From a bacterium UBP15_UBA6099 (GTDB lineage: Bacteria > UBP15 > UBA6099), in assembly GCA_002435745.1 (NCBI GenBank), contig DIWT01000004.1, positions 19,096-83,095 of the forward strand: DNA of 64,000 nt, read 5' to 3'. The notes under the pieces were generated by a model that was not told the origin of the DNA, made no database searches, and was given only the letters and a program-made list of their open reading frames with translations. The translations under genes were made by a program, and so were the position numbers. Each line of letters opens with the position of its first letter. Position 1 is the stretch's first letter. Shown here piece by piece: positions 2,946 to 32,337 of the stretch.

Positions 2946-3773
2946 ATGTCTGTCGTAAACACCAACATTTCCGGTCTGATAGGACTGAACAATCTGAGGC
3001 TGACAAACCTCGGATTGCAGACGTCGCTTGAAAGGCTGTCGTCGGGGCTGAGAATCAATCACGCCTCGGACGACCCCAGCGGTCTTGCCATCGCCAAGGG
3101 GATGGAAGCGCAGATAGGCGGCATCCGCACCGCCGTGCAGAACGCCGAGGACGGGATCAACCTGATCCGCACCGCCGACGGCTCTCTGAGCGAGACGCAC
3201 GACATCCTGCTTAGGATGCGAGACCTCGCGGTGCGCGCGGCCAACGAAGCCACGCTCACTCCCGCGGATCTCAACAGGCTTCACAACGAGTTTGTAAGCC
3301 TGATCGCGGAGATCGACCGCAAGTCGGATGCCGTCACTTTCAACACGAAAGTTCTGTTCGACGGCACTTTCGCAGGAGGAGAGGTGCTTCAGGTCGGCCC
3401 GGACAACGGCGCTACTTTCCAACTAACCGTGTCCATTCCTGACCTTGATTCAACAGGGCTGGGGATCAACGCCGCGTCGCTGTCGCAGGTGGCAAACGCC
3501 CAAGCCGCCATCGACTCTGTCAACAGCGCCATCAACCAGATATCCGACGTGCGCGCGAACCTCGGCATACAGGAACGCCGCCTCGGCCACATCATCGACG
3601 ACCTGAAAGCGGCCGATATAAACATCTCCGCCGCCAAGAGCCGCATCTACGACGCGGACATGGCAGTCGAGATAAGCGAGTTCACCCGCCTGCAGATACT
3701 CCAGCAGAGCGGCACGGCGATACTCGCTCAGGCCAATGCGCAGCCTCAGAGCGTGCTGCAACTTCTGAAATAA
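2946..3773 (+). CDS. fliC: Flagellin, short form (275 aa), copy 1
   Basis: The conserved flagellin N-terminal segment (LERLSSGLRINHASDDPSGLAIAKGMEAQIGG...QNAEDGINLIRTADGSL) and C-terminal segment (ANLGIQERRLGH...RIYDADMAVEISEFTRLQILQQSGTAILAQANAQPQSVLQLL) are both present. The RBS is AAGGAGGAAA. Confidence 0.9.
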   Translation: MSVVNTNISGLIGLNNLRLTNLGLQTSLERLSSGLRINHASDDPSGLAIAKGMEAQIGGIRTAVQNAEDGINLIRTADGSLSETHDILLRMRDLAVRAANEATLTPADLNRLHNEFVSLIAEIDRKSDAVTFNTKVLFDGTFAGGEVLQVGPDNGATFQLTVSIPDLDSTGLGINAASLSQVANAQAAIDSVNSAINQISDVRANLGIQERRLGHIIDDLKAADINISAAKSRIYDADMAVEISEFTRLQILQQSGTAILAQANAQPQSVLQLLK

Positions 3774-4974: not shown

Positions 4975-5029
4975 AAAACATATAAAAGTCGATCACGGAT
5001 GATCGACTCTACAACATGGAGGTGTAATT

Positions 5030-5857
5030 ATGTCGGTAGTAAACACAAACATTTCCGGTCTGATAGGACTGAACAATCTGAGGCTGACGAACCTCGGATT
5101 GCAGACGTCGCTTGAAAGGCTGTCGTCGGGGCTGAGAATCAATCACGCCTCAGACGACCCCAGCGGACTTGCCATCGCCAAAGGGATGGAGGCGCAGATC
5201 GGCGGCATCCGCACAGCAGTGCAGAACGCCGAGGACGGGATCAACCTGATCCGCACCGCCGACGGCTCTCTGAGCGAGACGCACGACATCCTGATGAGGA
5301 TGCGAGACCTCGCGGTGCGCGCGGCTAACGAGGCAACGCTCACATCCGCCGACCTGACGAGGCTCAACAACGAGTTCAACAGCCTCATGGCCGAGATCGA
5401 CCGCAAGTCGGACGCCGTCACGTTCAACACGAAAGTTCTGTTTGACGGCACGTTTTCCGCCGGACAGGTGCTTCAGATCGGTCCGGACAACGGAGCCACT
5501 TTCCAGTTGACCGTGCAGATTAACGACCTCGATTCCACAGGTCTCGGAATCAACACGGCTTCAGTGGGAGTGGTCGCAAACGCCCAGTCGGCGATCGACT
5601 ACATCAACAGCGCCATCAACCAGATATCCGACGTGCGCGCGAACCTCGGCATACAGGAACGCCGCCTCGGCCACATCATCGACGACCTGAAAGCGGCCGA
5701 TATAAACATCTCCGCCGCCAAGAGCCGCATCTACGACGCGGACATGGCAGTCGAGATAAGCGAGTTCACCCGCCTGCAGATACTCCAGCAGAGCGGCACG
5801 GCGATACTCGCTCAGGCAAACGCTCAGCCGCAGAGCGTGCTCCAGCTTCTTAAGTAA
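5030..5857 (+). CDS. fliC: Flagellin, short form (275 aa), copy 3
   Basis: Same conserved termini. The central region is closest to copy 2. Confidence 0.9.
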   Translation: MSVVNTNISGLIGLNNLRLTNLGLQTSLERLSSGLRINHASDDPSGLAIAKGMEAQIGGIRTAVQNAEDGINLIRTADGSLSETHDILMRMRDLAVRAANEATLTSADLTRLNNEFNSLMAEIDRKSDAVTFNTKVLFDGTFSAGQVLQIGPDNGATFQLTVQINDLDSTGLGINTASVGVVANAQSAIDYINSAINQISDVRANLGIQERRLGHIIDDLKAADINISAAKSRIYDADMAVEISEFTRLQILQQSGTAILAQANAQPQSVLQLLK

Positions 5858-5883
5858 CATCTCGCAAGACCTGAAATCCTGAC

Positions 5884-5922
5884 AAAAAAAAGAAACCCGC
5901 CACGGCGGGTTTCTTTTTTTAT
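5884..5922. terminator. Bidirectional rho-independent terminator between flagellin 3 (+) and the B12-rSAM gene (-)
   Basis: AAAAAAAAGAAACCCGCC-ACGG-CGGGTTTCTTTTTTT: an A-run, a perfect stem, and a T-run. Confidence 0.75.
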
Positions 5923-5942
5923 GCTATGGATATTTCTCGCGG

Positions 5943-7898
5943 TTATCTTTCGTTCACTGCGAATTGAAGCCCTTTGAGACGTTTGCGGAGCGCCGCCATC
6001 TGGCGCGCGTGCGCCTCCGAACAGTTTATCTTTATGTCCGCGCCTTTGCGGGAAAGAGATTCGAGCATCCTGCCGAATGCCTCAGAATCCAGACGCGCCA
6101 AAGGCGCAAGGTTTATGTGAACAGCCTTGACGGCTATCTTCTTTTCGTTGAGCGTGTTAATCAGTCTGCGCATGGTTTTCTCTTTTACAGAGCCGCGAAG
6201 GTAAACCGAAAGCTCCGCCTCTCCGCCTCTGTTTTCGAGGAAAGCCCATGCTTTGCGGAGTTTAAGGAGGGCAGTGGCGCGGGCGGCGGAACACGCGGCG
6301 GCGGCGACCTCAGCCGGCTCCATCCTGAACCGGGTGACTATCGCTCGCGGGTTGTGGGGATGGAACTCCCTCTCGTATCTCATCCGCGCCGCGCTCGCCA
6401 TGAGCCAGACCGCCGAGTTGGCTATGAAATGCGCCGGGTTTCGCGCCCCGAACTTTTCGGCGAACATCGCCTCTATGCGTTCAGCTTTCTCTTTCATCTG
6501 TTTTTCCGGGGCGAGCCATTTAAGGGCGGTCAGCGCGTGACGGTATGCTTTGCATCTGCGAACGGCGGTTTCATATCTCGCCGCCATCATCGGGTCTCCG
6601 CTCTTGTAATGAGGGGAATTCAGCCCCTGAATCATGGCCTCGCCGACCCTGAGTATGGACGGGCCAAGCTCGCGGAACTCGCGGGCGAACGCTTCTTTAG
6701 TCGTCACCGCGCTTTCCTCCCGCGTGAAGTGCGGGTGCTTGAACCACAGCATGTGTTGCCCGTGCCATTCCTCATACGGCACGTCGTCCAGCAGTAGCCC
6801 TTGCTCCTTGTATTCGAGGTAGAGTCTAGTCTGCGGCAGGGGGCCGAGCTGCATGAACTGCGTGAAGTCCGGCTTCAGGCTTATCGCGAAATCGATGTCC
6901 TCGTTGATGCTCTCTTTGTCGTGATGTTCAAGGAAAAGGATGGACGATGCCAGCACGAATATCCCGTTCGCGCGGAGTTCGGCGATGAGCGCCTGAACGT
7001 CGATTCCTTTGGTTTTCTCGAACAGGTTCCGCTTGGACTCGACGCCTATCCACACGTAGTTGACGCCCAGCGCCATCATGTTGTCCACGCCGAACGCCGT
7101 TATCGCCTCTGCGGACGAGAAAACGCTGAAGTTGAACGGCCGGTTGTGCTCGCGCATGAGCGCCAGCAGTTCCATCGCTCTGTCTTTGTGAAGGAGAAAG
7201 TTCTCGTCCATCACGAAGAAGTCGTTTGTCTTAAGCTCGTCCGCGAGCCGCACGCACACGTCGAATATGTCTTTGCCCGTTTTCAGGAACGGGGTGTATT
7301 CCTTGTCGTAGAAGTGGGACGTGCAGCAGAACCGGCAGGCGTTCGGGCAGCCAACGCCGGGCACTAGCACCGCGCCCTGTTGCGTGAACGGAAGCCCGAG
7401 AATCCTTTTGTGGTCCGCGGCGGGCATCGCCGGGTGCTTTATCGGCGCGTTCATGTCCTCTCCCAGCAGATTCCTCAGCTTGCTGATTCCCTCTCCGGGC
7501 AGAACATGGTCGCAGTCGATCAAAGTCTCGATGTCGGGGATTCTCGAACCGTGGCCTCCGAGGATTATTTTCGTCTGCGGCGAAACCTCTCTGATTATCT
7601 CCGCCATCCTTCGCGCTTTCACGAAGTTCGGGGCGATGAAGGAAATGCCCACGTAGTCGTAGCCTTTGGCAAGCTCCTTGCGAAACTGTTTTATCGATGG
7701 GAAGTCGAGCACAGTGGTGGGAGTGGACAGGTTCTCCGCGATGAAATAGAGGCCGAAACTCCTGTGATTGTATCTGAGCGAGAAAATGCCTTGCTCGCGG
7801 GTCACCTGATTGTGGAACAGTTCGAGTTTATTTTCCTTGCGGCCATAGGCGTCGTCTACGCCGAACGGCCTGAATACCGATGTAAGCAGTAATTTCAT
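5943..7898 (-). CDS. B12-binding-domain radical SAM protein (class B, BchE-like family; function unknown)
   Basis: N-terminal Rossmann-like B12-binding region (GISFIAPNFVKARRMAEIIREVSPQTKIILGGHGS), then the radical SAM cluster motif GCPNACRFCCTSHF (CxxxCxxC). 651 aa. Confidence 0.8.
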   Translation of the reverse strand: MKLLLTSVFRPFGVDDAYGRKENKLELFHNQVTREQGIFSLRYNHRSFGLYFIAENLSTPTTVLDFPSIKQFRKELAKGYDYVGISFIAPNFVKARRMAEIIREVSPQTKIILGGHGSRIPDIETLIDCDHVLPGEGISKLRNLLGEDMNAPIKHPAMPAADHKRILGLPFTQQGAVLVPGVGCPNACRFCCTSHFYDKEYTPFLKTGKDIFDVCVRLADELKTNDFFVMDENFLLHKDRAMELLALMREHNRPFNFSVFSSAEAITAFGVDNMMALGVNYVWIGVESKRNLFEKTKGIDVQALIAELRANGIFVLASSILFLEHHDKESINEDIDFAISLKPDFTQFMQLGPLPQTRLYLEYKEQGLLLDDVPYEEWHGQHMLWFKHPHFTREESAVTTKEAFAREFRELGPSILRVGEAMIQGLNSPHYKSGDPMMAARYETAVRRCKAYRHALTALKWLAPEKQMKEKAERIEAMFAEKFGARNPAHFIANSAVWLMASAARMRYEREFHPHNPRAIVTRFRMEPAEVAAAACSAARATALLKLRKAWAFLENRGGEAELSVYLRGSVKEKTMRRLINTLNEKKIAVKAVHINLAPLARLDSEAFGRMLESLSRKGADIKINCSEAHARQMAALRKRLKGLQFAVNER

Positions 7899-9189: not shown

Positions 9190-10503
9190 TTGTTACATCA
9201 CTCTTATGCTGTTCCTCAAAATGTATCAGTTGTTAGAAAAGACGATGTTATTTTGGTAATTAATCCACAAACAGCTAATTGGCTGGTGCTAAACGATATT
9301 GAATTAGAAGTATATTTTTTGCTCGCAGAAGGAATAACAATAAAAAAGGTCATAGAGAAGATTTCTAAAAAAAGCAACTGTAATCAACATGCCTCTTCAA
9401 TTGTCAAAAGATTTCTTGCTCAATCGGAAGCTAAACAATTCAACAAAACTGTTGGGACTGTGTTCGCAGATTCATTTGGGATGTATGTTTTTCTAACATT
9501 TGACTGCAATCTGAAGTGTAGTCACTGTTTTCTATACGATAAACCACGACTCGGAGATCCTCTTGAAATTGAACAATGGAAAAGAATACTCATTGATTTT
9601 CAGCTTGCCGGAGGAGAAAAGATAACATTATCTGGAGGGGAACCGACACTTTTTGATTCCTTTGCAGATATCCTTGTTTTTGCACATGGCATTGGATTGA
9701 AAGTGACATTATTGACAAATGGCATGATTTTGCATTCGGAACTACTAGAATTATATTCTAACAATGTAGATGAACTCCAGATTAGCCTCGATGGACCGGA
9801 AGAGATTAGTCACGAGATGATAAGGGGAAAGGGAACTTACTTTAAGACATACTCAAACATAAAAAAAGCGTTAGACAAGGGCGTTATGGTTACTATTGCC
9901 ATGACGCCAACTTTTGAGACATTTCCATTTTTCGAAGAGCATTTTGTTCGATTTGCGAAATCTTTACTTAATGAATACTCAAATGTAAATGTTAAATTGA
10001 CACAAAAGCTTCTTCGATCAAAAATGTCGATTTATTCGGATACGGATATGAATAAATATTACGCAAAAGGAAATAGACTGATTAATAATCTTTATGAGGA
10101 TTATTCCATCAATGCGTTTTATTTAGACCACCCTGTGAATACAATACGACGCAATTGTGGTTATGGCGAGATATCAGTTATTCCAGACGGAACCGTGTAT
10201 TTATGTAGTAGGATTTGTGATTTGAAACCAGTTGCAAATTTAAAGGAATTAAAAATGGTAAACGTGATACAAATTGCACGAGAGGAGAAAGAGAGGGCTT
10301 CAGTGGAGAATATCATCCCATGTCAGCATTGTTGTTTAAGGTATATCTGTTCTGGTGGTTGCAGAATAGACGACATCCCTGATTTTTGTAATGGACAATT
10401 GACTGTAGATTGTCCTGAAGAAAGGAAGCAACAAATATTTGACATGATGATAGAATCAAACAATATGTATTTCAATATAGAGTATAAACCAAATAATGAA
10501 TGA
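9190..10503 (+). CDS. Radical SAM/SPASM-domain peptide-modifying enzyme with N-terminal PqqD-like RiPP recognition element
   Basis: The N-terminus (VILVINPQTANWLVLNDIELEVYFLLAEGITIKKVIEKI) is PqqD/RRE-like. The rSAM motif is FDCNLKCSHCF (Cx3Cx2C), with GGEPTLF present. The C-terminal Cys cluster CQHCCLRYICSGGCR is typical of SPASM auxiliary-cluster domains. Confidence 0.8.
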   Translation: MLHHSYAVPQNVSVVRKDDVILVINPQTANWLVLNDIELEVYFLLAEGITIKKVIEKISKKSNCNQHASSIVKRFLAQSEAKQFNKTVGTVFADSFGMYVFLTFDCNLKCSHCFLYDKPRLGDPLEIEQWKRILIDFQLAGGEKITLSGGEPTLFDSFADILVFAHGIGLKVTLLTNGMILHSELLELYSNNVDELQISLDGPEEISHEMIRGKGTYFKTYSNIKKALDKGVMVTIAMTPTFETFPFFEEHFVRFAKSLLNEYSNVNVKLTQKLLRSKMSIYSDTDMNKYYAKGNRLINNLYEDYSINAFYLDHPVNTIRRNCGYGEISVIPDGTVYLCSRICDLKPVANLKELKMVNVIQIAREEKERASVENIIPCQHCCLRYICSGGCRIDDIPDFCNGQLTVDCPEERKQQIFDMMIESNNMYFNIEYKPNNE

Positions 10504-12898
10504 AGAACATAAACATAAAAGCATATTAATTATATTTATAAATTGGGCTCATCAGCCTAGGATCAGGATAGTCCAGCGAACATATGCTGCTAGAAACAGC
10601 CCCTCTCCCAATGCAATAAAAGATATTGATCATATCAATCCATCATTGATTGCGCAATTTCCTGACGATCTTGACAAAAAGTTGTTGGGTTGGCTGATGG
10701 TGCCTCACAAAGCATTGCTTCCAGACCCGGTCAGGGTCAATGATATACCTGTTGGAATAATCAATGAATACATAAAGCGCAAGCGTGCCTATTATTCTCC
10801 TTCAGGAAAAAACAAATCCTTAAAAAGAATATATTCTGTAGATATTGACATCCCTAATGTTGGTGTATATTCTTGGAGTATCAATGAACGAAATCTAATT
10901 TTGAGTAGTAGTTTTATTGGCGACGATATGGTTATCATTGAGAAACATCCTATTATGATAATCTCAAGAACAGAAAACAATAATTATGTTGGTATTCCAT
11001 ACGCAAGGGTAAAACACAACGATGGTTATGTGCCTTTGTTTTCTTTTAGTAAGGAAGCGACATTAACACTGCTAAGTCAATTAATTAAATGTGCAAGATC
11101 AGAAGATTATCTTTTGTGGTATTTTCCTGACAACATGTATGAATTGTCATTATCGATTGAAACACTTATAAACGATGGTTGGGATATCGAATATGATGAC
11201 AAGAAAAGAGTTGTAAAAACGACTCGATGGAATATGAAAGCAAATGATAAAACCGATTGGTTTGAAATTGATGGAGTTGCTCAATATAATGACAGCACAT
11301 TGTCTATATCAGAAATGCTTGCGGCATTGAGAAAGAGGTCGGCTTTTGTTGCGTTAGAATCAGGGGGTATAGCGGTTCTTCCTTCAGATTGGATAAAAAA
11401 TATTATTCCAATGGAACCATATCTCTCTGCAAATATGAGAATATCCAGATCATTCGTTGGATTAATAAGTGCGTCAACAAGCATCAATTCAGAGAATAGT
11501 ATTAGTTACAAAATAGCAAGAAAACTTATCTCAGCGCAAAACAATTATGAACCGGTATTATGGGATGGTAAATGTCTGAAACCATATCAGAATTGTGCTG
11601 TAAATTGGCTTAATGAAGCATATAAACAAAACATTGGATGTCTTCTTGCGGATGAAATGGGATTGGGTAAAACCATTGTTACTCTTGCTCACCTGTCTTT
11701 ATTTAAGGGAGATCATCTTATAGTAGCTCCAGCTTCAATCATATCTAATTGGATTCATGAAATTGAAGTAAATTTACCTAACGCAATGTGGTCTCTATGG
11801 GGATCAAAAGAAGAACAATCTGATTCTTCAAGAACCAGCATATATTTAATGAGCTATCAAACCATGCTTAGAAACATAGATGCGATAACTATGAAGCGTT
11901 ATATGGTAGCAGTATTCGACGAATCACAGTATTTAAAAAACTCATTTTCGATGACGGCGAATGCAGCAAGGAAAGTTAAATGCAATCAAGCTATCGCATT
12001 AACAGGAACACCAATTGAGAATAATGTATCGGAGTTGTGGAGTCATTTGAACCTTGTTGCGCCGAATTGGCACAATAATCGAAGGAATTTTGAGACTATT
12101 TGTAGCGAAGCAACCAAGAGTGATGCCTCGTTGATTCATCTTAGAAAAGCTTTGTCTCCATTTATATTGAGAAGAACTAGAAGTGATGTTTTAAAAGATT
12201 TACCTGATTTGAATATCGAGATAATAAGATGTGAGTTGAGTGAAGACCATCTAAAGCTCTACAAAAAATGGATGATATCAGCAAGAAAGGCTTTTTCTGA
12301 CCCTGAGCATAGAACAAGAAAAAAAGGTGCGGTGTTAGAAGTGTTGTTAAGATTGAGGCAAATCTGTTGTGACCCGCTTTTGATAACACAAGACTATGAT
12401 GGTGATGTTGTTGTGTCAGGAAAAACTGAAGCAATATTAAATGCTATTATTGTGATTTCTGAATATGACAAATTATTAGTGTTTTCACAGTTTTCATCAT
12501 ATTTGGAGTTATTAAAAACCTTACTAGATAAGCATTTTGTGAATAATTTACTATTGATCGGAACTACTGGCAACAGAGATGATGTGATAAAAGAATTTAA
12601 AGAATCAGAAAACACAAATGTATTATTAGCAAGTCTTAAAGTTGGAGGCGTCGGATTGAACTTAATAGAAGCTGCTAACGTAGTATTATGTGATCCATGG
12701 TGGAATCCTGCTGCAGAGATGCAAGCATGGTCAAGAGCATATAGAATGGGGCAAAAGAAAAATGTAAATGTTATAAAATTTGTGTGTAAAAACACTATAG
12801 AAGAACGCATATTGGAGCTTCAAGAAAAAAAAGCTACACTGAATCAATTTGTGCCAGAAAAAATATCAAGCAAAGAAATTATTGAATTATTGAAATAA
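10496..12898 (+). CDS. SNF2-family (Swi2/Snf2, RapA/YwqA-like) helicase/ATPase, 800 aa
   Basis: Motif I LLADEMGLGKT, motif II VFDESQYLKN (the DExH-like box of SNF2), motif III LTGTPIENNVSELWSHLNLV, and C-terminal AWSRAYRMGQKKNVNVIKF (SNF2 motif VI). About 350 aa at the N-terminus are unassigned. The start overlaps the rSAM stop by 8 nt, which implies translational coupling. Confidence 0.85.
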   Translation: MNEEHKHKSILIIFINWAHQPRIRIVQRTYAARNSPSPNAIKDIDHINPSLIAQFPDDLDKKLLGWLMVPHKALLPDPVRVNDIPVGIINEYIKRKRAYYSPSGKNKSLKRIYSVDIDIPNVGVYSWSINERNLILSSSFIGDDMVIIEKHPIMIISRTENNNYVGIPYARVKHNDGYVPLFSFSKEATLTLLSQLIKCARSEDYLLWYFPDNMYELSLSIETLINDGWDIEYDDKKRVVKTTRWNMKANDKTDWFEIDGVAQYNDSTLSISEMLAALRKRSAFVALESGGIAVLPSDWIKNIIPMEPYLSANMRISRSFVGLISASTSINSENSISYKIARKLISAQNNYEPVLWDGKCLKPYQNCAVNWLNEAYKQNIGCLLADEMGLGKTIVTLAHLSLFKGDHLIVAPASIISNWIHEIEVNLPNAMWSLWGSKEEQSDSSRTSIYLMSYQTMLRNIDAITMKRYMVAVFDESQYLKNSFSMTANAARKVKCNQAIALTGTPIENNVSELWSHLNLVAPNWHNNRRNFETICSEATKSDASLIHLRKALSPFILRRTRSDVLKDLPDLNIEIIRCELSEDHLKLYKKWMISARKAFSDPEHRTRKKGAVLEVLLRLRQICCDPLLITQDYDGDVVVSGKTEAILNAIIVISEYDKLLVFSQFSSYLELLKTLLDKHFVNNLLLIGTTGNRDDVIKEFKESENTNVLLASLKVGGVGLNLIEAANVVLCDPWWNPAAEMQAWSRAYRMGQKKNVNVIKFVCKNTIEERILELQEKKATLNQFVPEKISSKEIIELLK

Positions 12899-15913: not shown

Positions 15914-18484
15914 TCATTTATTAATTGACATGTTATAAAAAACACGACTGTCCTCGGCGCTTAGCACAGTATCGTAAAGGCCGATGTCTTCGCCTTCGTG
16001 CTTATTGACGCCTATATAAATTAGACTGGAATCTTCGTATCGTTTAAACTTATAGACAGCGTCATTCATCAATGCGCTATTGAATACTCCAAGGCTTACC
16101 AACAACTCGAACTCTTTCATAGTCAGGCCGGTTACTTTCTTGAACAAACCCGGCTCCAGTTGCGTGATGACATCCTTCAGACATCGCTCTCGATAATCGG
16201 TCAAATACATAAAGATTGGCAAACGCGTGGCGAACTTGATAAGTTTTTCCTGAATCTGCTTCCGCAAGCTTTTGTATTCCTTTTCCTCCTCGGTGAGCTT
16301 CTTCTTTTCCTTTGTGGAAAGCTCTTTGTCATTTGCTTCCTTTCTCGCCTTTTTCACGGCTTCCGACTTGTTGATAATAGTCTCGATGTCCTGATTGAGG
16401 TTGCGAAAGCCTTCAATTCTCATTAGCGCATCCATAGCGGCTTTGTTGCTCATGAGCCGTTTCAGGGCTTCGTTATCCACATTAACCAGCAAAGCGCTTT
16501 CCCAGCGCCTCGCCAAAAGAGTTGCTGTAGTTCCACTCATCGCCATATCCAGAATGCCTGCGGCATTGATCTCTTTCATTGAACTGCCGTCATAGGCTAA
16601 CACTGGAAGAAAGTTTATAAACTCCGCCACCTTCTTTTCGGGATTGGACTCATCGACATTCAGTCGGCAACTGTAATCGGCGATCTGCCGCAAAGCTCTG
16701 TCCGGCGCGAAATCAAAGACATAGCATTCCTCTTTAATGATTTGCTCCCGATTCGGCGCTGTGTTGTCGGGATTCCTGATTGACCAAGGTGATTGCACGC
16801 GGAAAGCAGCCTGAAAATAGGTCTCGGGACTGGACGAATTCCGCAACATGAGGATGCCGGTCCACGGCCTTACCGTGACTCCTGTGGTCAGTTTGCCGCA
16901 TGACAGGGTAATTGTTTTGGTTGCTAAGGGATCGTCCATGGCCTCCTGCACGGGCGGCAAAGCGGCAACGCCAATACCGGCGTCGCTTCCCGCCGCAACG
17001 ATTACTTCGTAATCGCGATAGAACTTATTCTGTTTCTTCGCCATAAGGTTGCGCATTGCGTGACACGAGGCAACACTGGGCAGAAACCAGAAGGTGTGCG
17101 ATAAAACATTCAGTAATCGCGCATCGGAAAACGGCATCGGCGGTTTTTGAGCGCCCAGTTTCAAGTTGTCAATATTTGTTGCCGAGAATGAGCCGCGTAT
17201 CAAATCAAGCCACTTCTGCACTTCATCCGTGTACGTAAATTTCGCCTTGTTTCCCGCCCCGGTAGCGGAAAAAAAAGTGTTAAGATCGAACTCATTGAAC
17301 TCGCCCTGCATGGCGATTTCGCGTATCGAATCGGGCAGTTGATAGGTCATTAACACCATTCGAGGAAGCGCCGCGTATGGATTGTCCCCGCCTGTCCATT
17401 CCTGCTTGGCCCGCTGCTCGTCCGAATACGTCCAGTTAAAAATCTGCTCCTCGATGAATTCGCCGGACGCAATGGCCCTAAACGGCGTGCCGGATAGATA
17501 GAGATATGCATTCGTGGTAATCGGCATAATCTCTTCGTCAAAATCCTCAATGCCGGCGCCTTCTCCAAACTCGATTTCTTTCTTGTCCTCCGCCGCAAAA
17601 AGCTCTCTGGCGTTTTCGCGCCACGCGCCGTAGTGATACTCGTCAAGGATGACACAATCCCAGTTGGTCTCATGCGCCCATTCATTCTTGGTCTTGAGCC
17701 CCCCGGTGCTTTTGTTCTTGCCAAGGTGATCCTGAAAAGAACCGAAACAGACGAAAGGCTTCTTCTTGTCCGCGTCTTCGTATGATAAACCGCCCGGCGA
17801 GATAAACTGCCACCCTTTGAAATCAATATGGCATTTCAAGTCTTCTTCCCATGCGTTCTGCACTGCGGGCTTGAAGGTCAGCACAAGAACCTTGCGCCAG
17901 TCCATTTTCTTAGCGAGCTGATAGGCGGCAAAGGTTTTGCCAAAGCGCATTTTAGCGTTCCATAGAAAGCGCGGCGACTTATCCTTGTTTTCCTTTCTGA
18001 AACTCTTGAAATAAGCGACGGTCTTTTCCACCGCCGCTTCCTGTTCCGGTCGCATCTTGAAATCAAGCGAACGGTTTTCCTCGTTCATTTCACCAGTTCT
18101 CAGAGCAATGACCGCCGCTTTTACCTGTTTTGCCGAACATTTGAACCATTCCCCTTTGGGATTTTTGACGCCGATGGCTCGTAAGCGACGGTGAACATCA
18201 TGGTCGGTGAAGACCGTGCCGTCATTGCGCATTGCGAATTCTTCAAGGACGATCCGATACGGCGGTTTTCCCGGCCTCAATGTCGGATATTGCTGTTCCA
18301 CGCGCGTCCGGGCGTCCGCTAATGTATAGCCGACTTTGAGCAATCCCGCGTATTGAGGATTTGTGTCCTCGTAGGCGTAGATGGTCGGTTTGGAATCCGG
18401 CCGCTGAGGGAAGAAATTATCAGGTTTCCTCGGCATTGTTTCCCAGCTTCTTTTTAGTTTTTGCGGGCGGAAGAAAGTTGTCAC
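15914..18484 (-). CDS. Defense-type helicase: N-terminal T5orf172/GIY-YIG-like domain fused to an SF2 (Type III Res-like) DEAD/DEAH helicase, 856 aa
   Basis: IYAYEDTNPQYAGLLKVGYT is a GIY-YIG/T5orf172-like beta-hairpin. The Walker A is AKMRFGKTFAAYQLA and the DExH box is VILDEYHYGA. About 450 aa at the C-terminus are uncharacterised. An alternative start lies at 18436. Confidence 0.7.
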   Translation of the reverse strand: MTTFFRPQKLKRSWETMPRKPDNFFPQRPDSKPTIYAYEDTNPQYAGLLKVGYTLADARTRVEQQYPTLRPGKPPYRIVLEEFAMRNDGTVFTDHDVHRRLRAIGVKNPKGEWFKCSAKQVKAAVIALRTGEMNEENRSLDFKMRPEQEAAVEKTVAYFKSFRKENKDKSPRFLWNAKMRFGKTFAAYQLAKKMDWRKVLVLTFKPAVQNAWEEDLKCHIDFKGWQFISPGGLSYEDADKKKPFVCFGSFQDHLGKNKSTGGLKTKNEWAHETNWDCVILDEYHYGAWRENARELFAAEDKKEIEFGEGAGIEDFDEEIMPITTNAYLYLSGTPFRAIASGEFIEEQIFNWTYSDEQRAKQEWTGGDNPYAALPRMVLMTYQLPDSIREIAMQGEFNEFDLNTFFSATGAGNKAKFTYTDEVQKWLDLIRGSFSATNIDNLKLGAQKPPMPFSDARLLNVLSHTFWFLPSVASCHAMRNLMAKKQNKFYRDYEVIVAAGSDAGIGVAALPPVQEAMDDPLATKTITLSCGKLTTGVTVRPWTGILMLRNSSSPETYFQAAFRVQSPWSIRNPDNTAPNREQIIKEECYVFDFAPDRALRQIADYSCRLNVDESNPEKKVAEFINFLPVLAYDGSSMKEINAAGILDMAMSGTTATLLARRWESALLVNVDNEALKRLMSNKAAMDALMRIEGFRNLNQDIETIINKSEAVKKARKEANDKELSTKEKKKLTEEEKEYKSLRKQIQEKLIKFATRLPIFMYLTDYRERCLKDVITQLEPGLFKKVTGLTMKEFELLVSLGVFNSALMNDAVYKFKRYEDSSLIYIGVNKHEGEDIGLYDTVLSAEDSRVFYNMSINK

Positions 18485-19280
18485 CGGTCACCACGCCGCG
18501 TCCGGTTTTCCGCTCCAGTTCCAGCCTCGCCTTTTTTGCGATTCTTCCGCCTTTTCTGCCCGCCTGCGCATTTTCATCCATGCCGGTTGCTTCAACGCTC
18601 TCCGCAATCTGGCGGGTGGAAAGCTCCGCTAAAGCTGTAAAAATCAGTTCCGCCTCGCTCATGTGGTCGCGTAGGTTTTGAGTTTTGAGGTCCTTTATCT
18701 GCTTGTGTTTCTTGACCGAAACCCCGCTCCATTCTTTGTGAATTATATTGGTCAGAATGGCGTATTCGTCTTCGCCTTTAATCTCGTGGTCTTTCCAGTA
18801 ATCGGTGAGTTTATTGCGGGTTTCCTGCCCCATCATCCGCTGCTGAATCCATTTTTCGCTTCTGCCGCTCTGTTGCCAGTAGTCGCGCGCCCGGTCAAGG
18901 GATCGGGCCGGATCGCTCATGTCCTGAATGCGCTCGTAACCCGCTTTGGCAAGCCATAGCTTGATGGGTTCCGCTCTGGGACTGGGAACCGACTGTATGA
19001 TTCGCAGAAGAGCCTCCGGGCCGGCCGCGTCGGTCAGGTATTTTTTCCCGTCAGCGGCTTCCATTTTCAGTTGGTGACAATTTGTCACCGACTGATTTCC
19101 CTCTTTCTTGAGGCGTTCTTTCAACTTGTTCCAGTACTTCCGGGCAGTCTGATAATCCGGCTGCTGAATCAGCGCGGCGATGATATCCACAACGGAAAAC
19201 AACCATGTTTCTGTCTTTTCATCATAAATCCTGCGGATTTTAAAGTTTTCAAAAACCGCAAGCGCCTTTTCTTCATTCAT
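18420..19280 (-). CDS. Bro-N domain protein, DinD-like (DNA-damage-inducible protein D family)
   Basis: The N-terminus FENFKIRRIYDEKTETWLFSVVDIIAALIQ...KLWLAKAGYERI is Bro-N-like. The rest resembles E. coli DinD. Confidence 0.6.
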   Translation of the reverse strand: MNEEKALAVFENFKIRRIYDEKTETWLFSVVDIIAALIQQPDYQTARKYWNKLKERLKKEGNQSVTNCHQLKMEAADGKKYLTDAAGPEALLRIIQSVPSPRAEPIKLWLAKAGYERIQDMSDPARSLDRARDYWQQSGRSEKWIQQRMMGQETRNKLTDYWKDHEIKGEDEYAILTNIIHKEWSGVSVKKHKQIKDLKTQNLRDHMSEAELIFTALAELSTRQIAESVEATGMDENAQAGRKGGRIAKKARLELERKTGRGVVTGDNFLPPAKTKKKLGNNAEET

Positions 19281-20781
19281 TGTTAATCTCCATCGGTCGA
19301 ACTATTAAGTCAATAAAATCAATTTCGTCGTCTGACAAACCAAAATGAGCGAAGAGTTTTTCGTCTGTCCATATTTTTGACATAGGCAGAAGAGGCACAA
19401 ATGAAAATTTGTCCTTTGTGTTGTCCTGTGTGTTTTTGCGTAAGCCCACCAGAAACCGCAGAAACTTTGTTCTAAGATATTTGTCCAGATTTTTTGCGGC
19501 GCTTTCGGTTTCATAAGCTCCAACTACAATGTAGGTCTCGGTGCAAGCGCTGGATGGAGGCGCTATAATCGGCTTGCCCATTATCATTCGTGGATAATCG
19601 CGAGCTTCACCTCCTTCCCCGTATGCCTTAGAAATTAGAACCTTCCACAAATCCAGCAACTCCATTCCATTTTTGATGTCCGATTTTTCTATCCATCCGA
19701 CAGTTTTTGTTGCATACAATTTAATGTTGCCTTTTCCAGTAGGCCGGACAAATGTCGGGAGCCCAAATGGTTTTCGACTATAGATTTGTTCACTTATTGA
19801 TGTGTATTTCTTTTCTTTTACCTTTTCGAGAATCGAAATAGCCTTATTGAATCGAACAAATGAATCAAATTGATCCAAAGAGCGCTTCATCGTATCATCC
19901 ATGCCACTCATGCGTGTAGTTACTTCACATTGACCGCTGTAATCCCGCTCCCATAAAAAATAACATACACCGCCAATCACCTTGACGCCGGGGAAAACAT
20001 CAGATGCTATTGGATAGTCAACCAAATGAGAGATTCTGCGATCCTTTAGCATTGTATCGCGAAAAACATCCAGCCCTTTCCCACCGGCAAACCATCGGGA
20101 TGGGATAATCATTGACAAATATCTCGGTTCAAGTTTTTTAGCTTGTTCGACAAAATTGTGATAAATAGGAGATGAGCCTGTGCTATCTCCAGCATCACTC
20201 AACTGATACGGTGGATTACCTATAATTACATCAAATTTCATATTGAATATCGCCTCCGGATTTTCCGTGTGAATAAATTGATAGGCATGGGTTTCGAGTT
20301 CTTCGCCCCGCTCATAGCTTTCCTGACTGGCGCCGCAGAAAACGCAGCGCCCGTTTTCCCATGTGTGCTCCACTCGCTCAAAGCGAATATTCCCTTGCGG
20401 GTCGTCGAAAGTTTCACAGACGGAGTATTTTCCATTGGCCGTTTTGGAGCAGTAAACAGAACGGCGGGAAAGCAACGCGGTCAACTCAGTTATTGCCACG
20501 CCGAAGATCTGGTTCTTGAAGATGTGGTTGATTCGAGCCTGCCTGTCCGGGATTTTTTTTTCAAGCCCCGCATCCAACCGCCTTGCGATTTCGCGCGGAA
20601 ACACACCGGACTTACAGAACGGATCGAGAAACCGGGTGTTCTTATTGCCCCAGATTTCCGGAGGCAGCAAATCCAATATTTGATTAACCAATTGCGGCGG
20701 CGTGAACACTTCGTCGCTGCTCAGATTGGCCAGACAGGTCAGCACATCCGGGTTGTAGCTATTGCCTGTCAACATCGGCAA
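19273..20781 (-). CDS. N6-adenine DNA methyltransferase, gamma class (Eco57I-like), with C-terminal target-recognition region
   Basis: Motif X EVFTPPQLV, motif I RFLDPFCKSGVF, and motif IV IIGNPPYQ. 502 aa. Confidence 0.8.
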   Translation of the reverse strand: MPMLTGNSYNPDVLTCLANLSSDEVFTPPQLVNQILDLLPPEIWGNKNTRFLDPFCKSGVFPREIARRLDAGLEKKIPDRQARINHIFKNQIFGVAITELTALLSRRSVYCSKTANGKYSVCETFDDPQGNIRFERVEHTWENGRCVFCGASQESYERGEELETHAYQFIHTENPEAIFNMKFDVIIGNPPYQLSDAGDSTGSSPIYHNFVEQAKKLEPRYLSMIIPSRWFAGGKGLDVFRDTMLKDRRISHLVDYPIASDVFPGVKVIGGVCYFLWERDYSGQCEVTTRMSGMDDTMKRSLDQFDSFVRFNKAISILEKVKEKKYTSISEQIYSRKPFGLPTFVRPTGKGNIKLYATKTVGWIEKSDIKNGMELLDLWKVLISKAYGEGGEARDYPRMIMGKPIIAPPSSACTETYIVVGAYETESAAKNLDKYLRTKFLRFLVGLRKNTQDNTKDKFSFVPLLPMSKIWTDEKLFAHFGLSDDEIDFIDLIVRPMEINNE

Positions 20782-28899: not shown

Positions 28900-29424
28900 A
28901 TGGCGGCGGAACTTCAATCTTCAAACTTCGACCAAGAGGTTATCAAGTCCTCGACCCCGGTGGTAGTGGATTTCAGCGCGGTGTGGTGCGGGCCTTGCAA
29001 GATGCTTGCTCCGGTGATAGACAAGCTGGCTAATGCTTACGAAGGCAAGGCTAAGGTTTTCAAGATGGACGTGGACAACTCGCGCGATATCGCCACGAAA
29101 TTCGGAATTCGGGGCGTGCCGACAGTCATATTCTTCAAGGGCGGAGCGGAGAAAGACAGAGTTGTGGGGCTGGTGCCATACGAAATGCTCGACAAAAAGC
29201 TTTCGGCTATGATTGAGACACCTGTGCCAGAAGCAATTAAATGTCCACAATGTCAATCAACACAAATAACATCCCAAGAAAAAGGATTCAGCTTGGGAAA
29301 AGCAGCTGCTGGCGGTGTTTTACTTGGTCCCGTTGGCTTATTGGGTGGAGTATTAGGAAGCAAAAAAATCAATGTTGTATGCTTAAATTGTGGGCATTCT
29401 TGGAGTCCGGACGCAAAAGAATAA
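28900..29424 (+). CDS. trxA: Thioredoxin with C-terminal zinc-ribbon-like extension (174 aa)
   Basis: WCGPCK active site and the Trx fold up to about residue 108. After that an AT-rich encoded tail carries CPQC...(Gly-rich hydrophobic)...CLNC. Confidence 0.8.
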   Translation: MAAELQSSNFDQEVIKSSTPVVVDFSAVWCGPCKMLAPVIDKLANAYEGKAKVFKMDVDNSRDIATKFGIRGVPTVIFFKGGAEKDRVVGLVPYEMLDKKLSAMIETPVPEAIKCPQCQSTQITSQEKGFSLGKAAAGGVLLGPVGLLGGVLGSKKINVVCLNCGHSWSPDAKE

Positions 29425-29546
29425 GAGGAAATGCCTATAGAAGACGCAAAAACGATCTGTTGAAAGCATCTTGATGCAATAATCAAACCAGATTCGTTAA
29501 GGCGATGGAAGACAATATAGTTGCGATATAGAGATAAAGTTGTCGT

Positions 29547-29840
29547 CTATATATCTTTCAGAGGTTTTGCGCTGTTGCATATAGCGGCAATTTCAACATA
29601 TCCGTCTTTGAGCCGATAGACGATTCTGTAATTTTTAAAAATTCTTTCCCTGATATTTTTATCTTCATATTCTGACAGAGCGCGGCCGGCCAAAGGGAAA
29701 TCCGGAATAGATTCAACGATTGCAATAATGCGTTTTGCGAAAAGAGCCGCATAATATTCGGAGTCTCTGGAAATGAATTCGCAGACGTCTTCAAGATCGG
29801 CAATGGCTCCCGGCGCCCATCTTATTCTTTTGATATCCAT
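29547..29840 (-). CDS. RelE/ParE-family type II toxin
   Basis: 97 aa with a RelE/ParE-like C-terminal half (IVYRLKDGYVEIAAI). It overlaps the upstream small ORF by 19 nt. Confidence 0.65.
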   Translation of the reverse strand: MDIKRIRWAPGAIADLEDVCEFISRDSEYYAALFAKRIIAIVESIPDFPLAGRALSEYEDKNIRERIFKNYRIVYRLKDGYVEIAAICNSAKPLKDI

Positions 29841-30022
29841 TTTGACATCCGTTTCTTGACATCATCATGAGCAATCCCTTTACCCTCTTCCAAGTCCTTC
29901 AAGCCGGAATCAACCTTTATCCTGAAATACAACTCAGCCATAACATCGTCCAATGTCGCGTCATCCGGCAGACGCTCAATGATACTTATCATCTGTTGTT
30001 TTATTCCGACCATTTCAATCAC
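29822..30022 (-). CDS. Putative antitoxin of the RelE/ParE module (66 aa)
   Basis: Small acidic protein immediately upstream of, and overlapping, the toxin gene. The LPDDATLDDVMAELYFR pattern matches addiction-module antitoxin components. Confidence 0.5.
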   Translation of the reverse strand: MIEMVGIKQQMISIIERLPDDATLDDVMAELYFRIKVDSGLKDLEEGKGIAHDDVKKRMSKWISKE

Positions 30023-30141
30023 CCCTTTATAAAATTATATATTATCTCTGCCGCTTCTCAAAGTGAAGTCCCGTCATGTCAAACTCGTATCTTGGAGCGC
30101 GATCAGAACTGCGATTTCACCCATAGATGTTTAGCGTTATA

Positions 30142-30170
30142 AACCCGAATCCTAATGCCGGATTCGGGTT
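30142..30170. terminator. Perfect 11-bp-stem hairpin aacccgaatcc-taatgcc-ggattcgggtt at the 3' end of relA/spoT
   Basis: Read directly. It lacks a clean U-tract, so it may be an mRNA stability element or boundary hairpin rather than a canonical terminator. Confidence 0.45.
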
Positions 30171-30174
30171 GAGG

Positions 30175-32337
30175 TTAAAGTTTTCTGCGGGCGGAGATTA
30201 CGTCAACGATGGAGGAGATGCGGGGGAGGATGCGGGAGACATCTTCGATGTCGCCGACTTCAAGGCGGATGGTGGTGAGCGCGGTGGTATCTTTCATTAT
30301 CTTGGAGGTCATTTCGACGACGTTGAGTTTGGCTTCGCTGATGACAGCGAGGATTTCCTGAAGCACGCCGACTCTGTCGATGGAGTTGATCTCGATTTCG
30401 GCGATGTAGAGGTTGCCTGAGGTCTCGCCCCATTTGACGGGGACGATGCGGTCGCCGGACTCGACGAAGGAGCGGACATTCGGGCACTGGGAGCGATGAA
30501 TGGCGAGGCCGCGCCCACGCGTGACGAAACCGACGATGGGGTCTCCGGGGGCGGGAAAACAGCATTTGGGGAACGATACCATGACGTCGGGCAGTCCCTC
30601 GACGATTACGTCCTGTTTTCTGCTTTTGCGGATTGTGGTTCTGGCGCGAGCCGCGCCGCGCGCAGCAGGCTCCTCGACCGCCAGCAGTTCGCGGTAAGCG
30701 CGTCTGTATCTTTCCATCACCGCGCCGAGGGAGATGTCTCCGCAGCCGAGCGCGGCGTGAAAGTCGTCTTCCGATTTGAAGCTGAACGATTCGAGAAAAT
30801 CCTCGATGTCGATTTTTTCCAGCAGGTCTTCGCGTTTGAGGCCCGCGCGCTGAAGCTCCCGATGGAGCATCATTCTTCCCTGAACGATGTTTTCGTCGCG
30901 GTCCTGTTTTTTGAACCAAGCGCGGATTTTGTTTCTGGCCTGAGGGCTGACGGCGAAGCGGAGCCAGTCTCGGCTGGGCGAGCCTGTTTTGGATGTGAGG
31001 ATTTCGACGACGTCGCCGTTGCGGAGCTTCTGGTCTAGGGTGGAGATGCGCCCGTTGATTTTTGCGCCTCGGCAGGTGTGTCCGACCTGCGTGTGGATGT
31101 CATACGCGAAGTCGACTGGGGTGGCCCCGGCGGGCAGCGAGATCACTTTGCCCAGCGGGGTGACGGTGTAGACGGTGGTCCCGGCGTCGACGGAGATGTC
31201 TTCGGAGCGGTTGTGGGCGGCCTGAGCGGTCTCCGACGCGGACGCCATTTTGCGCACCCATCCGACAGTGTCATCGTCCGCCTCTCTTTTTCCCTGAGCT
31301 TTTTCCTTGTACTGGAAGTGGGCGGCGACGCCGTACTCGGCCAGCATGTGCATCTCCCACGTGCGGATCTGCACTTCGACCGGCTGGTTGTTCGGCGCTA
31401 TCACCACGGTGTGGATGCTCTTGTAGCCGTTCGGCTTCGGCTCTGCGATGTAGTTGTCGAACTCGTCAGGGATGGGCGTCCACAGCATGTGCAGCAGGGC
31501 GAGGACTCGGTAGCAGTCTTCGACGGTGTTGGCGATGATGCGGACGGCGGCCAGATCGAACAGTTGGTCGAAGTCCTTGTTCTGCCGGAGCATCTTCAGG
31601 TATGTGCTGTAGAGTCTTTTAGTGCGGCCTGTGATGTGCACTTTGAGGTCGTGCTCTTTGAATATGCCGCGAAGGAGGGAGACGACGCGGTTGATGGCTT
31701 CTTCGCGCTGGGCGGCGGACTCGTCGGCCTGCCGCTTCAGCCTATTGAACTCCGCCGGGAAAAGGAACTCGAAACAGAGGTCTTCCAGTTCGGATTTGAG
31801 CTGAGACATACCGAGCCTGTGGGCGAGAGGAGTGTAAATGTCGATGGATTCCTGAGCGAAGTTGTCGCGGCCCTCTGCGGGCGCGTTTTTGAGATGCCGC
31901 ATCAGGTCGAGCCGGGAGGCGAGCTTGATCAGAAGGAGCCTGACGTCCTGAGACATGGCGACCATAAGCTCGCTGAGTTGTGTGGCGCGGGCGCGTTCCT
32001 CGGCGGAGAAATGCAGCGAGCGCATCTGGGCGAGACCGCGCGCGAGCGCGGCGGCTTCCGGGCCGACTGCGGACTGGACGCGGGCGGCTGCTTTTTCGCC
32101 CCCGATGTCCGCCGTTCCCATCAGTATCGTCGCCGCGAGCGTGTTCGCGTCCATTGAAAGAGATGTGAGCGTGAGAGCCGCTTCAAGGCAGTGTTCGAGC
32201 AGGGGTCGCCCGTCGGGGGTCGCGCGTGACGCGTAGATGTCTGCCGCCGTCTCAAAGGCGCGGTCGAGAAGGGACGCATCCGCCGAGGGGTCGTATCCGG
32301 CGAGGTTCCGTTTGATTTTGTCCAGAAGCGTTTTCAT
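30175..32337 (-). CDS. relA: Bifunctional (p)ppGpp synthetase/hydrolase RelA/SpoT (HD-RelA_SpoT-TGS-ACT)
   Basis: An HD hydrolase N-terminus, a synthetase block (RTKRLYSTYLKM...DLAAVRII), a TGS region and a C-terminal ACT domain. 720 aa. Confidence 0.9.
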   Translation of the reverse strand: MKTLLDKIKRNLAGYDPSADASLLDRAFETAADIYASRATPDGRPLLEHCLEAALTLTSLSMDANTLAATILMGTADIGGEKAAARVQSAVGPEAAALARGLAQMRSLHFSAEERARATQLSELMVAMSQDVRLLLIKLASRLDLMRHLKNAPAEGRDNFAQESIDIYTPLAHRLGMSQLKSELEDLCFEFLFPAEFNRLKRQADESAAQREEAINRVVSLLRGIFKEHDLKVHITGRTKRLYSTYLKMLRQNKDFDQLFDLAAVRIIANTVEDCYRVLALLHMLWTPIPDEFDNYIAEPKPNGYKSIHTVVIAPNNQPVEVQIRTWEMHMLAEYGVAAHFQYKEKAQGKREADDDTVGWVRKMASASETAQAAHNRSEDISVDAGTTVYTVTPLGKVISLPAGATPVDFAYDIHTQVGHTCRGAKINGRISTLDQKLRNGDVVEILTSKTGSPSRDWLRFAVSPQARNKIRAWFKKQDRDENIVQGRMMLHRELQRAGLKREDLLEKIDIEDFLESFSFKSEDDFHAALGCGDISLGAVMERYRRAYRELLAVEEPAARGAARARTTIRKSRKQDVIVEGLPDVMVSFPKCCFPAPGDPIVGFVTRGRGLAIHRSQCPNVRSFVESGDRIVPVKWGETSGNLYIAEIEINSIDRVGVLQEILAVISEAKLNVVEMTSKIMKDTTALTTIRLEVGDIEDVSRILPRISSIVDVISARRKL

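Follow-up and report, generated by a model that had tools for sequence, protein, structure and literature searches.

A thioredoxin fused to a LITAF-like zinc-ribbon module in an uncultured bacterium: an old, selected fusion that may tether thioredoxin to the membrane

Introduction

The LITAF/SIMPLE domain of eukaryotes (PF10601), which also occurs in CDIP1 and plant GILP, lies in a C-terminal position and carries CxxC knuckles that are ~22 hydrophobic residues apart; human LITAF binds zinc and inserts into the membrane in a monotopic manner (PMC5142333, PMC5095921). Here we describe a fusion open reading frame (ORF) at positions 28900–29424 of the forward strand of a 64,000-nucleotide stretch of contig DIWT01000004.1 (the window), in which a TrxA-type thioredoxin (Trx) continues into a C-terminal tail with a LITAF-like architecture. 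The host is an uncultured anaerobic bacterium whose relatives include “bacterium ADurb.Bin236”. Among thioredoxins, Escherichia coli Trx2 (TrxC) is similar in combining a WCGPC thioredoxin with an extra, presumably zinc-binding domain that has two CxxC motifs. Thioredoxin folds are also kept at the cytoplasmic membrane in TlpA, ResA, CcmG/DsbE and CcsX, which use an N-terminal transmembrane helix or a lipid anchor, display the fold outside the cytoplasm and belong to specialised families other than TrxA.

The fusion ORF differs from each of these systems. Although the tail shares its knuckles, their spacing and its terminal position with the LITAF domain, the LITAF insert is a Leu/Val-rich helix, whereas the insert of the tail is a Gly-zipper with a central Pro (GGxLLGPVGLLGG), and the His that precedes the second knuckle of LITAF (HxCxxC) is absent here (VVCLNCGH). 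LITAF is eukaryotic and has PPxY/PSAP adaptor motifs as its partner, in contrast to the module described here, which is bacterial or phage-borne and has an enzyme as its partner. The zinc finger of TrxC is N-terminal and soluble and lacks a hydrophobic insert, whereas the present module is C-terminal and contains a membrane-type segment; the NCBIfam TrxC model (NF008229) scored 82.5 bits against a cut-off of 125 bits and aligned to the Trx fold only. Unlike the TlpA, ResA, CcmG and CcsX types, against which the protein scored far below the cut-offs, the fusion is of the TrxA type, and its anchor is predicted to keep Trx in the cytoplasm. A literature search found neither a bacterial Trx–LITAF fusion nor a characterisation of this bacterial and phage module. 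The best explanation of the data, to which we assign a probability of roughly 55%, is that an old and selected gene fusion tethers a cytoplasmic thioredoxin to the membrane through a monotopic, zinc-stabilised anchor.

Results

The fusion ORF encodes 174 amino acids (aa), made up of a 105-residue Trx domain, a 7-residue linker and a 62-residue module. The Trx domain (codons 1–105, nucleotides (nt) 28900–29214) matched PF00085 at residues 3–101 in a profile search (E = 8.8e-31, 106.4 bits against a cut-off of 23.5) and TIGR01068 with 114.2 bits against a cut-off of 96.8, and the profile matches span residues 3–103. The translation retains an intact WCGPC motif at residues 29–33 as the active site (W29-C30-G31-P32-C33, nt 28984–28998). 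As judged from these matches, which pass the curated cut-offs, the Trx part is a canonical TrxA-type thioredoxin, and the fusion protein is apparently without a signal peptide. It departs from the single-domain TrxA of ~105–110 aa by 69 additional C-terminal residues. Among the 120 best full-length matches, the tail was carried only by the window protein itself (P0074) and by P0075, and nearly all of the remaining matches were single-domain Trx proteins of 102–126 aa; weaker or more distant fusions of Trx to the module are possible.

The module occupies nt 29236–29424 on the forward strand, including the stop codon at 29422–29424. The C-terminal tail of the ORF reads ...ETPVPEAIKCPQCQSTQITSQEKGFSLGKAAAGGVLLGPVGLLGGVLGSKKINVVCLNCGHSWSPDAKE, and the sequence that follows the linker ETPVPEA is IKCPQCQSTQITSQEKGFSLGKAAAGGVLLGPVGLLGGVLGSKKINVVCLNCGHSWSPDAKE. 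The first knuckle, C115/C118 (nt 29242–29253), and the second knuckle, C161/C164 (nt 29380–29391), bracket a 22-residue Gly-rich hydrophobic segment of the Gly-zipper type, LGKAAAGGVLLGPVGLLGGVLG (residues 132–153, nt 29293–29358), which has lysines on both flanks and a maximum 19-residue Kyte-Doolittle hydropathy of 1.72, at AAAGGVLLGPVGLLGGVLG. An earlier note on this DNA, made from the sequence alone, had described a Trx ORF with two CxxC pairs around a Gly-rich hydrophobic segment, and the tail is exactly as described there. The abrupt switch from GC-rich to AT-rich codons that the note had placed within the ORF is also real, as the GC content at third codon positions (GC3) drops at the junction from 0.667 in the Trx domain to 0.246 in the tail (Fisher P = 8.5e-8).

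A search with the tail alone retrieved 73 proteins of 53–120 aa in which the module is free-standing or C-terminal, and Trx was present in none of them. The best homologue (P0001) is 66 aa long and 81% identical, and its gene is surrounded by resolvase and helix-turn-helix (HTH) genes on a contig with a GC content of 41%. At the DNA level, nt 29230–29422 are 78.8% identical to positions 5007–5199 of locus L005, a free-standing 66-aa gene to which the similarity is confined. The low GC3, this nucleotide match and the plain 105-aa Trx of relatives and outgroups together indicate that the tail is a foreign small gene that was acquired horizontally. The neighbourhood of the free-standing homologues gave no functional clue because they have no conserved partner gene, the downstream proteins in L005, L117, L119 and L122 being mutually unrelated. 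In L005 (GCA_022704265.1), two further zinc-ribbon membrane proteins of 98 and 523 aa adjoin the closest free-standing homologue (5400–7339) and have a CPxC motif region in common with one another, and this segment is rich in resolvase and HTH genes and looks mobile.

The module belongs to a large family. A family profile search among 1.84 billion representatives returned 4,152 representative clusters, 2,136 of them at E ≤ 1e-10, and in most of the best 150 of the 4,152 clusters the module forms the last 60–65 residues of proteins of 72–488 aa. No further Trx fusion was detected by phmmer in the 146 newly returned representatives of these best 150 profile matches. Among 113 longer members that were scanned, the identifiable partner domains were DZR and other zinc ribbons, EIIBC-GUT_N, L7/L12_C and MORN, together with one TerD+TerB protein; Trx did not occur among them. 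In P0335 (488 aa), the CxxC/Gly-zipper/CxxC module sits between the TerD and TerB domains, which probably explains why several free-standing members of 60–120 aa bear the JGI label ‘tellurium resistance protein TerD’. Ten PHROG families matched the module, each at or near the C-terminal end of the profile (best match, phrog_2546, E = 3e-21), and a tblastn search of GenBank phages gave a single weak match, in Solobacterium phage SMO_1P, to a protein annotated as L7/L12. PADLOC models matched neither the tail nor the toxin–antitoxin (TA) genes that lie downstream of it. The family consensus is CPxC-x(10)-KGF(S/G)LGKAAxGGxLLGPVGLLGGxxGxKK-x(5)-CxxCG. All nine invariant columns (seven Gly and two Leu) lie between the two CxxC motifs, the Pro is nearly invariant and the knuckle cysteines are conserved in at least 90% of the 73 relatives.

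The module has, by its sequence, a LITAF-like architecture, with two knuckles around a hydrophobic stretch of ~20–25 residues. PF10601 (zf-LITAF-like) is the sole Pfam model to cover the two knuckles together with the insert; it aligned with the tail alone over profile positions 2–64 of 70 at 22.2 bits (cut-off 23.8), reached 25.0 bits in the homologue P0040 and matched 21 of the 73 relatives at E ≤ 0.01. Of these relatives, 14 of 73 matched the glycine-zipper region of C19orf12, and some bear the precomputed label PF27000.1, a separate and newer Pfam accession. An AlphaFold2 (AF2) model based on the family alignment had a mean predicted local distance difference test (pLDDT) score of 65.8, which rose to ~84 at the knuckles and the adjoining β strands, and contained a low-confidence Gly-rich part with two 4-residue helices around the GP turn. 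A Foldseek comparison of this model with the PDB returned only generic zinc ribbons (E > 0.1), and a profile search of the PDB sequences had no match better than E = 0.08; zinc ribbons such as those of Rpb9, TFIIS and Rpo12 were returned by the fold and sequence searches.

The trx loci of the window and its close relatives fall into four haplotypes. Haplotype A (the window and L001–L004) has the order GNAT, fusion gene, ParE/antitoxin genes, relA. Haplotype B (L069, L070 and L113–L116; proteins P0075/P0340) carries the fusion at 92% aa identity together with the TA pair, followed by a DUF169 gene and a gene for a Pyr_redox/rhodanese/TusA/DsrE protein in place of relA. In haplotype C (L010 and L071–L078; P0076), a 105-aa Trx ending in SKLNGLL is followed by 376 nt of AT-rich non-coding DNA (GC 0.436) and relA, and both the tail and the TA pair are missing. 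Haplotype E (L079, a 133-kb contig) has a 105-aa Trx of the C type, C-type intergenic DNA in inverted orientation with the relA hairpin, the TA pair (90% nt identity to the window) and the DUF169/Pyr_redox genes as in B. The exact 174-aa protein of lineage A was found in 12 contigs from at least 4 samples and the fusion of lineage B in 12 further contigs from at least 6 samples, giving a total of 24 contigs from at least 10 samples, which excludes an assembly error. Contigs with the fusion come from the public metagenome runs SRR943309, SRR943312 and SRR943314 and from JGI metagenome 3300002498 (contig prefix TOLCLC). The plain Trx of haplotype C bears out the proposal of the earlier note that the ORF is a chimera of a host Trx and a foreign AT-rich, zinc-ribbon-like module.

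A and C are homologous up to 29201 and again from 30146 onwards. The comparison with this block-less close relative places the borders of the AT-rich block at 29201/29202 and 30145/30146, within 15–25 nt of those in the note, which had followed the block through the convergent toxin and antitoxin genes to the relA hairpin. The junction zone and linker occupy nt 29202–29235, of which codons 106–112 (nt 29215–29235) encode the linker. Pairwise and BLAST alignments with the tail-less haplotypes C and E extend as far as 29201 (codon 101), and the match to the free-standing small gene begins at 29230. From these alignments, the junction can be placed only within 29202–29229, and the origin of these 28 nt is uncertain; an ATGATT that the junction has in common with the DNA preceding the L005 gene is not long enough to count as evidence. 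The Trx of the fusion ends in KKLSAMI at residue 105, and relatives end in KKLSAML, KKLNALL or SKLNGLL followed by a stop codon. All of the Trx proteins of relatives and outgroups are 105 aa long and end in K-L-[N/S]-[A/G]-[L/M]-[L], so that the fusion, as read from these alignments, retains a Trx C-terminal helix of native length and native-like sequence. The note had suggested that the native 3′ end of trxA was replaced. The native stop codon and 3′ untranslated region were certainly lost, whereas replacement of the last four codons is uncertain, the C-terminus being native-like.

The same junction is present in A and B, so a single fusion event is indicated. In the tail core (codons 113–168), A and B differ by 17 changes, of which 14 are synonymous and 3 non-synonymous (ratio of non-synonymous to synonymous substitution rates (dN/dS) 0.048, binomial P = 4e-7), a constraint comparable to that on the Trx domain (dN/dS 0.058). 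In contrast to the tail core, the linker diverged freely (ETPVPEA in A vs DSSEPEV in B). The synonymous divergence (dS) of the tail between A and B, 0.44–0.49, equals that of the adjoining core genes, 0.447 for Trx and 0.472 for GNAT. No Shine-Dalgarno-like sequence (GGAGG/AGGAG) was found just upstream of the tail in either lineage, and the only in-frame ATG/GTG codons near the tail start are not the same in A and B; hence the tail is translated together with the thioredoxin as one protein. These comparisons show that the fusion is real, old and under purifying selection.

Discussion

Zinc binding, membrane tethering and the topology of the fusion protein are properties that we infer. Illegitimate recombination would have joined the foreign gene once to the very end of trxA, at a recombination-prone spot between trxA and relA where a ParE-type TA pair was already resident. 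The four cysteines of the tail would coordinate a single zinc ion on the cytoplasmic side. Sharing that ion requires the knuckles to come together, which would place both ends of the hydrophobic segment on one side of the membrane, and a hairpin across the bilayer would seem to need longer helices than the two modelled. Instead, the Lys-flanked GGxLLGPVGLLGG hairpin may dip into the inner leaflet without crossing the membrane, and an active TrxA would be held at the cytoplasmic membrane face, near membrane-bound clients or electron acceptors. The module's attachment to the C-termini of unrelated domains, most of them of the soluble type, is consistent with a general membrane tether. Should the tail prove to be a monotopic anchor, the fusion would be, as far as we found, the first case in which a LITAF-type module keeps a TrxA-type thioredoxin at the cytoplasmic membrane face.

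Several observations weigh against this proposal. The fusion is limited to two lineages of one uncultured clade, and the pattern of relationships is mosaic, with flank identity to A higher in the tail-less haplotypes C and E (~0.90–0.92) than in the tail-bearing B (~0.86). If the fusion was gained once and early, a native trx end must have returned later in C and E by allelic replacement or reversion, or recombination must have blurred the tree. The PF10601 score stays under the gathering cut-off (18.6 bits in the full protein), and AF2 is only moderately confident, with a pLDDT of 53–56 in the hydrophobic segment. This Gly/Ala-rich segment is only moderately hydrophobic and could instead be a flexible or oligomerising element.

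The earlier note had interpreted the locus as a small mobile insertion, in which one element with the zinc-ribbon gene and the ParE TA pair landed between trxA and relA and overwrote the 3′ end of trxA in one step. The tail, the spacer and the TA pair are indeed contiguous and all AT-rich, haplotype C lacks the entire 29202–30145 block and the tail at this locus is always accompanied by the TA pair. However, haplotype E carries the TA pair beside a normal 105-aa Trx without the tail, and the TA genes have diverged together with the core genes: dS between A and B is 0.50 for ParE and 0.54 for the antitoxin, that between A and E is 0.16 for Trx, 0.26 for ParE and 0.22 for the antitoxin, and that between B and E is 0.53, 0.52 and 0.66, respectively, the tail being absent in E. 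Since the dS of the TA genes tracks that of core genes in every haplotype pair, the TA pair is an old, vertically inherited resident of the clade. GC3 is also unequal between the tail (0.25) and the TA genes (0.39 for ParE and 0.49 for the antitoxin). No TA pair adjoins the closest free-standing tail homologue, in which DNA similarity ends at the gene ends; conversely, the closest ParE relatives outside the clade, from metagenomes, show 60% identity or less, and none of the ParE loci contains the tail. A fusion that lacked the TA pair and had host codon usage, which the note had named as the refuting case, was not observed; the trxA loci of relatives showed the converse, as in haplotype E. The short direct repeats that the note had proposed to look for at ~29215 and ~30170 were not found in a search of 29050–30300 with a 7-nt seed, which returned only repeat pairs unrelated to the borders, nor did that search detect inverted repeats pairing the borders 29195–29235 and 30130–30150. 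Target-site duplications and terminal inverted repeats are thus lacking, and the block contains no transposase, integrase or recombinase gene, the only ORFs with family matches being the tail, ParE and the antitoxin. Because the TA pair occurs without the tail in E, repeats and a recombinase are missing and the tail homologue has no TA pair, the model of one insertion is unsupported, and we regard it as improbable. These comparisons show that the tail and the TA pair have separate histories, the AT-rich block being a mosaic of two foreign pieces.

The remaining alternatives concern what the tail does. It could be a zinc-thiolate redox switch or a client-binding domain that regulates Trx, as in E. 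coli TrxC and Hsp33, in which case oxidation would release zinc and alter activity or partners. Four conserved cysteines in two CxxC knuckles beside a CxxC oxidoreductase are what such a switch would look like, Trx2-type zinc-finger thioredoxins are an established precedent and the fold and sequence searches returned generic zinc ribbons only. Against this, the Gly/Leu hydrophobic hairpin is more conserved than the knuckles, the module also occurs on phage proteins and on many non-redox proteins that are unrelated to one another, the TrxC model falls short of its cut-off and the zinc site lies at the C-terminal and not the N-terminal end. We consider a switch as the sole role unlikely, though the least so of the alternatives, and the two roles can coexist; if the tail were only a zinc redox switch, it would represent a second, independent route to a Trx2-like zinc thioredoxin. 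A possibility that we rank lower than both the switch and the single insertion is that the Gly-zipper module is an oligomerising, membrane-perturbing peptide of phages or mobile elements (holin-like, or acting in exclusion or abortive infection) that has been domesticated or neutralised in the fusion, with Trx as a mere carrier. The glycine-zipper pattern, the match to the zipper region of C19orf12, the strong matches to ten phage protein families and the variable, defence-like or mobile contexts of the free-standing copies are consistent with this origin, but PADLOC gave no match, no conserved partner gene lies beside the free-standing copies, the Trx domain is itself strongly constrained and the helices at the GP turn look, from the 22-residue segment and the AF2 model, too short to cross the membrane. 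On the last alternative, the fusion arose by neutral accident or is artefactual (for example, from faulty assembly or sequencing, or from a stop codon lost recently), and the tail has no function. The confinement of the fusion to one uncultured clade and its absence from the closest relatives by flank identity would agree with this reading, which is nevertheless very improbable: the frame is intact in two lineages that are ~14% diverged at the nucleotide level and were assembled independently, the tail core is constrained and the tail has no conserved translation start of its own. A neutral accident or artefact is effectively refuted by the selection test and the independent assemblies.

On the proposal of a membrane tether, a housekeeping thioredoxin would have been turned into a membrane-tethered reductase by capturing a phage or mobile-element module that is a prokaryotic counterpart of LITAF. 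The module, with at least 4,000 clusters, would then be a general membrane-targeting device of bacteria and phages and possibly the source of LITAF domains. We offer this wider view tentatively, at somewhat less than even odds. The locus provides a datable case of domain capture from the mobile gene pool, with a donor-like gene, fused and unfused states in close relatives and measurable selection, and the fusion draws attention to a very large family, unstudied so far, of proteins from bacteria and phages that share the module.

Neighbouring genes and other features of the window

The block 29202–30145 has a GC content of 0.412, compared with 0.548 for the whole window, and its neighbours GNAT and relA have GC3 values of 0.74 and 0.77. 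Such AT-richness is shared by 7.5% of 944-nt intervals, which are equally AT-rich or more so, and other AT-rich islands at ~7.5–13.3, 15.7–16.8 and 18.9–20.6 kb carry defence-type genes. Haplotypes A and B are homologous across the tail as far as 29452 and again at 29548–30136. The spacer between the convergent fusion ORF and the ParE gene (29425–29546) is common to lineage B only at 29425–29452 (BLAST against L069 and L070), and no terminator-like site was found in the spacer.

The toxin gene (29547–29840, reverse strand) encodes a 97-aa protein of the ParE/RelE superfamily that matched PF05016 (E = 1.7e-13, 51.4 bits against a cut-off of 23) and phrog_2455 (E = 5e-14) and scored 17 bits against TIGR02385 (RelE_StbE; cut-off 27.9). 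The 63-aa antitoxin (29822–30013, reverse strand), assigned from its position and its overlap of 19 nt with the toxin start, gave weak scores of 14–16 bits against RelB and RelB/ParD models (cut-offs 50–60) and no match in Pfam, PHROG or PADLOC. Of the 34 loci retrieved with ParE, 13 have a detected antitoxin homologue just upstream of the toxin gene. The dN/dS values between A and B are 0.15 for ParE and 0.11 for the antitoxin. A sigma-70-like site upstream of the antitoxin (30034–30061, reverse strand; TTGAGA, 16-nt spacer, TATAAT; 11 of 12 matches in a consensus scan) represents a putative, promoter-like element for the antitoxin, and conservation of its region extends to nt 30136 between haplotypes A and B and to 30102 in E. 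In its PF05016 toxin, its overlapping upstream antitoxin gene, its promoter-like site and its AT-richness relative to the host, the pair resembles chromosomal type II ParE/RelE modules; nothing is unusual in comparison with typical modules of this kind, the antitoxin being weakly RelB/ParD-like and the pair being vertically inherited in the clade. The TA pair and the AT-richness are ordinary, and no functional link between the pair and the fusion is evident.

An inverted repeat (I8) with perfect 11-nt arms forms a hairpin at 30142–30170, directly after the relA stop codon (relA, 30175–32337, reverse strand), and constitutes the right border of the variable block. The hairpin behaves as a breakpoint among the genomes compared there, whose relA genes are ~95% identical: the DNA beyond it is trx in C, the TA pair in A, a PAS histidine kinase gene in L009 and an unrelated gene for a 161-aa protein in L011. 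The differing DNA beyond relA in L009 and L011 identifies the 3′ flank of relA as a recurrent rearrangement point. In L079, the entire trx–relA intergenic segment is inverted between trx and the TA pair, with the hairpin at ~3549–3575 in locus coordinates, which suggests inversions between hairpin-containing copies. In the outgroup relA loci L012 and L014, trx does not adjoin relA, so the arrangement is not polarisable with these outgroups. The DUF169 gene and the gene for an 823-aa Pyr_redox_2/rhodanese/TusA/DsrE protein (CoA-disulfide-reductase-like) lie at 7546–10877 in L069, 25–2735 in L079 and 7576–10907 in L113, and the thioredoxin of haplotypes B and E thus adjoins another sulfur/redox gene. 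Neither this region of B and E nor the DNA downstream of relA in L009 and L011 is present in the 64-kb window.

No Rfam families or tRNAs were detected in the window. In the AT-rich island at 9190–12898 (forward strand), a gene for a 437-aa radical-SAM protein that matched pVip (prokaryotic viperin) models (E = 3e-22) is directly followed by one for an 800-aa SNF2 helicase that matched DpdE and ZorD models (E = 2e-89), forming a candidate defence gene pair. A second AT-rich island (15914–20781, reverse strand) encodes an 856-aa T5orf172/ResIII protein that matched type IIG restriction-methylase models, a Bro-N protein with a nearly end-to-end match to the PADLOC candidate PDC-S13 (E = 4.5e-116) and a 502-aa Eco57I-type methyltransferase; these three genes look like a restriction/defence island.

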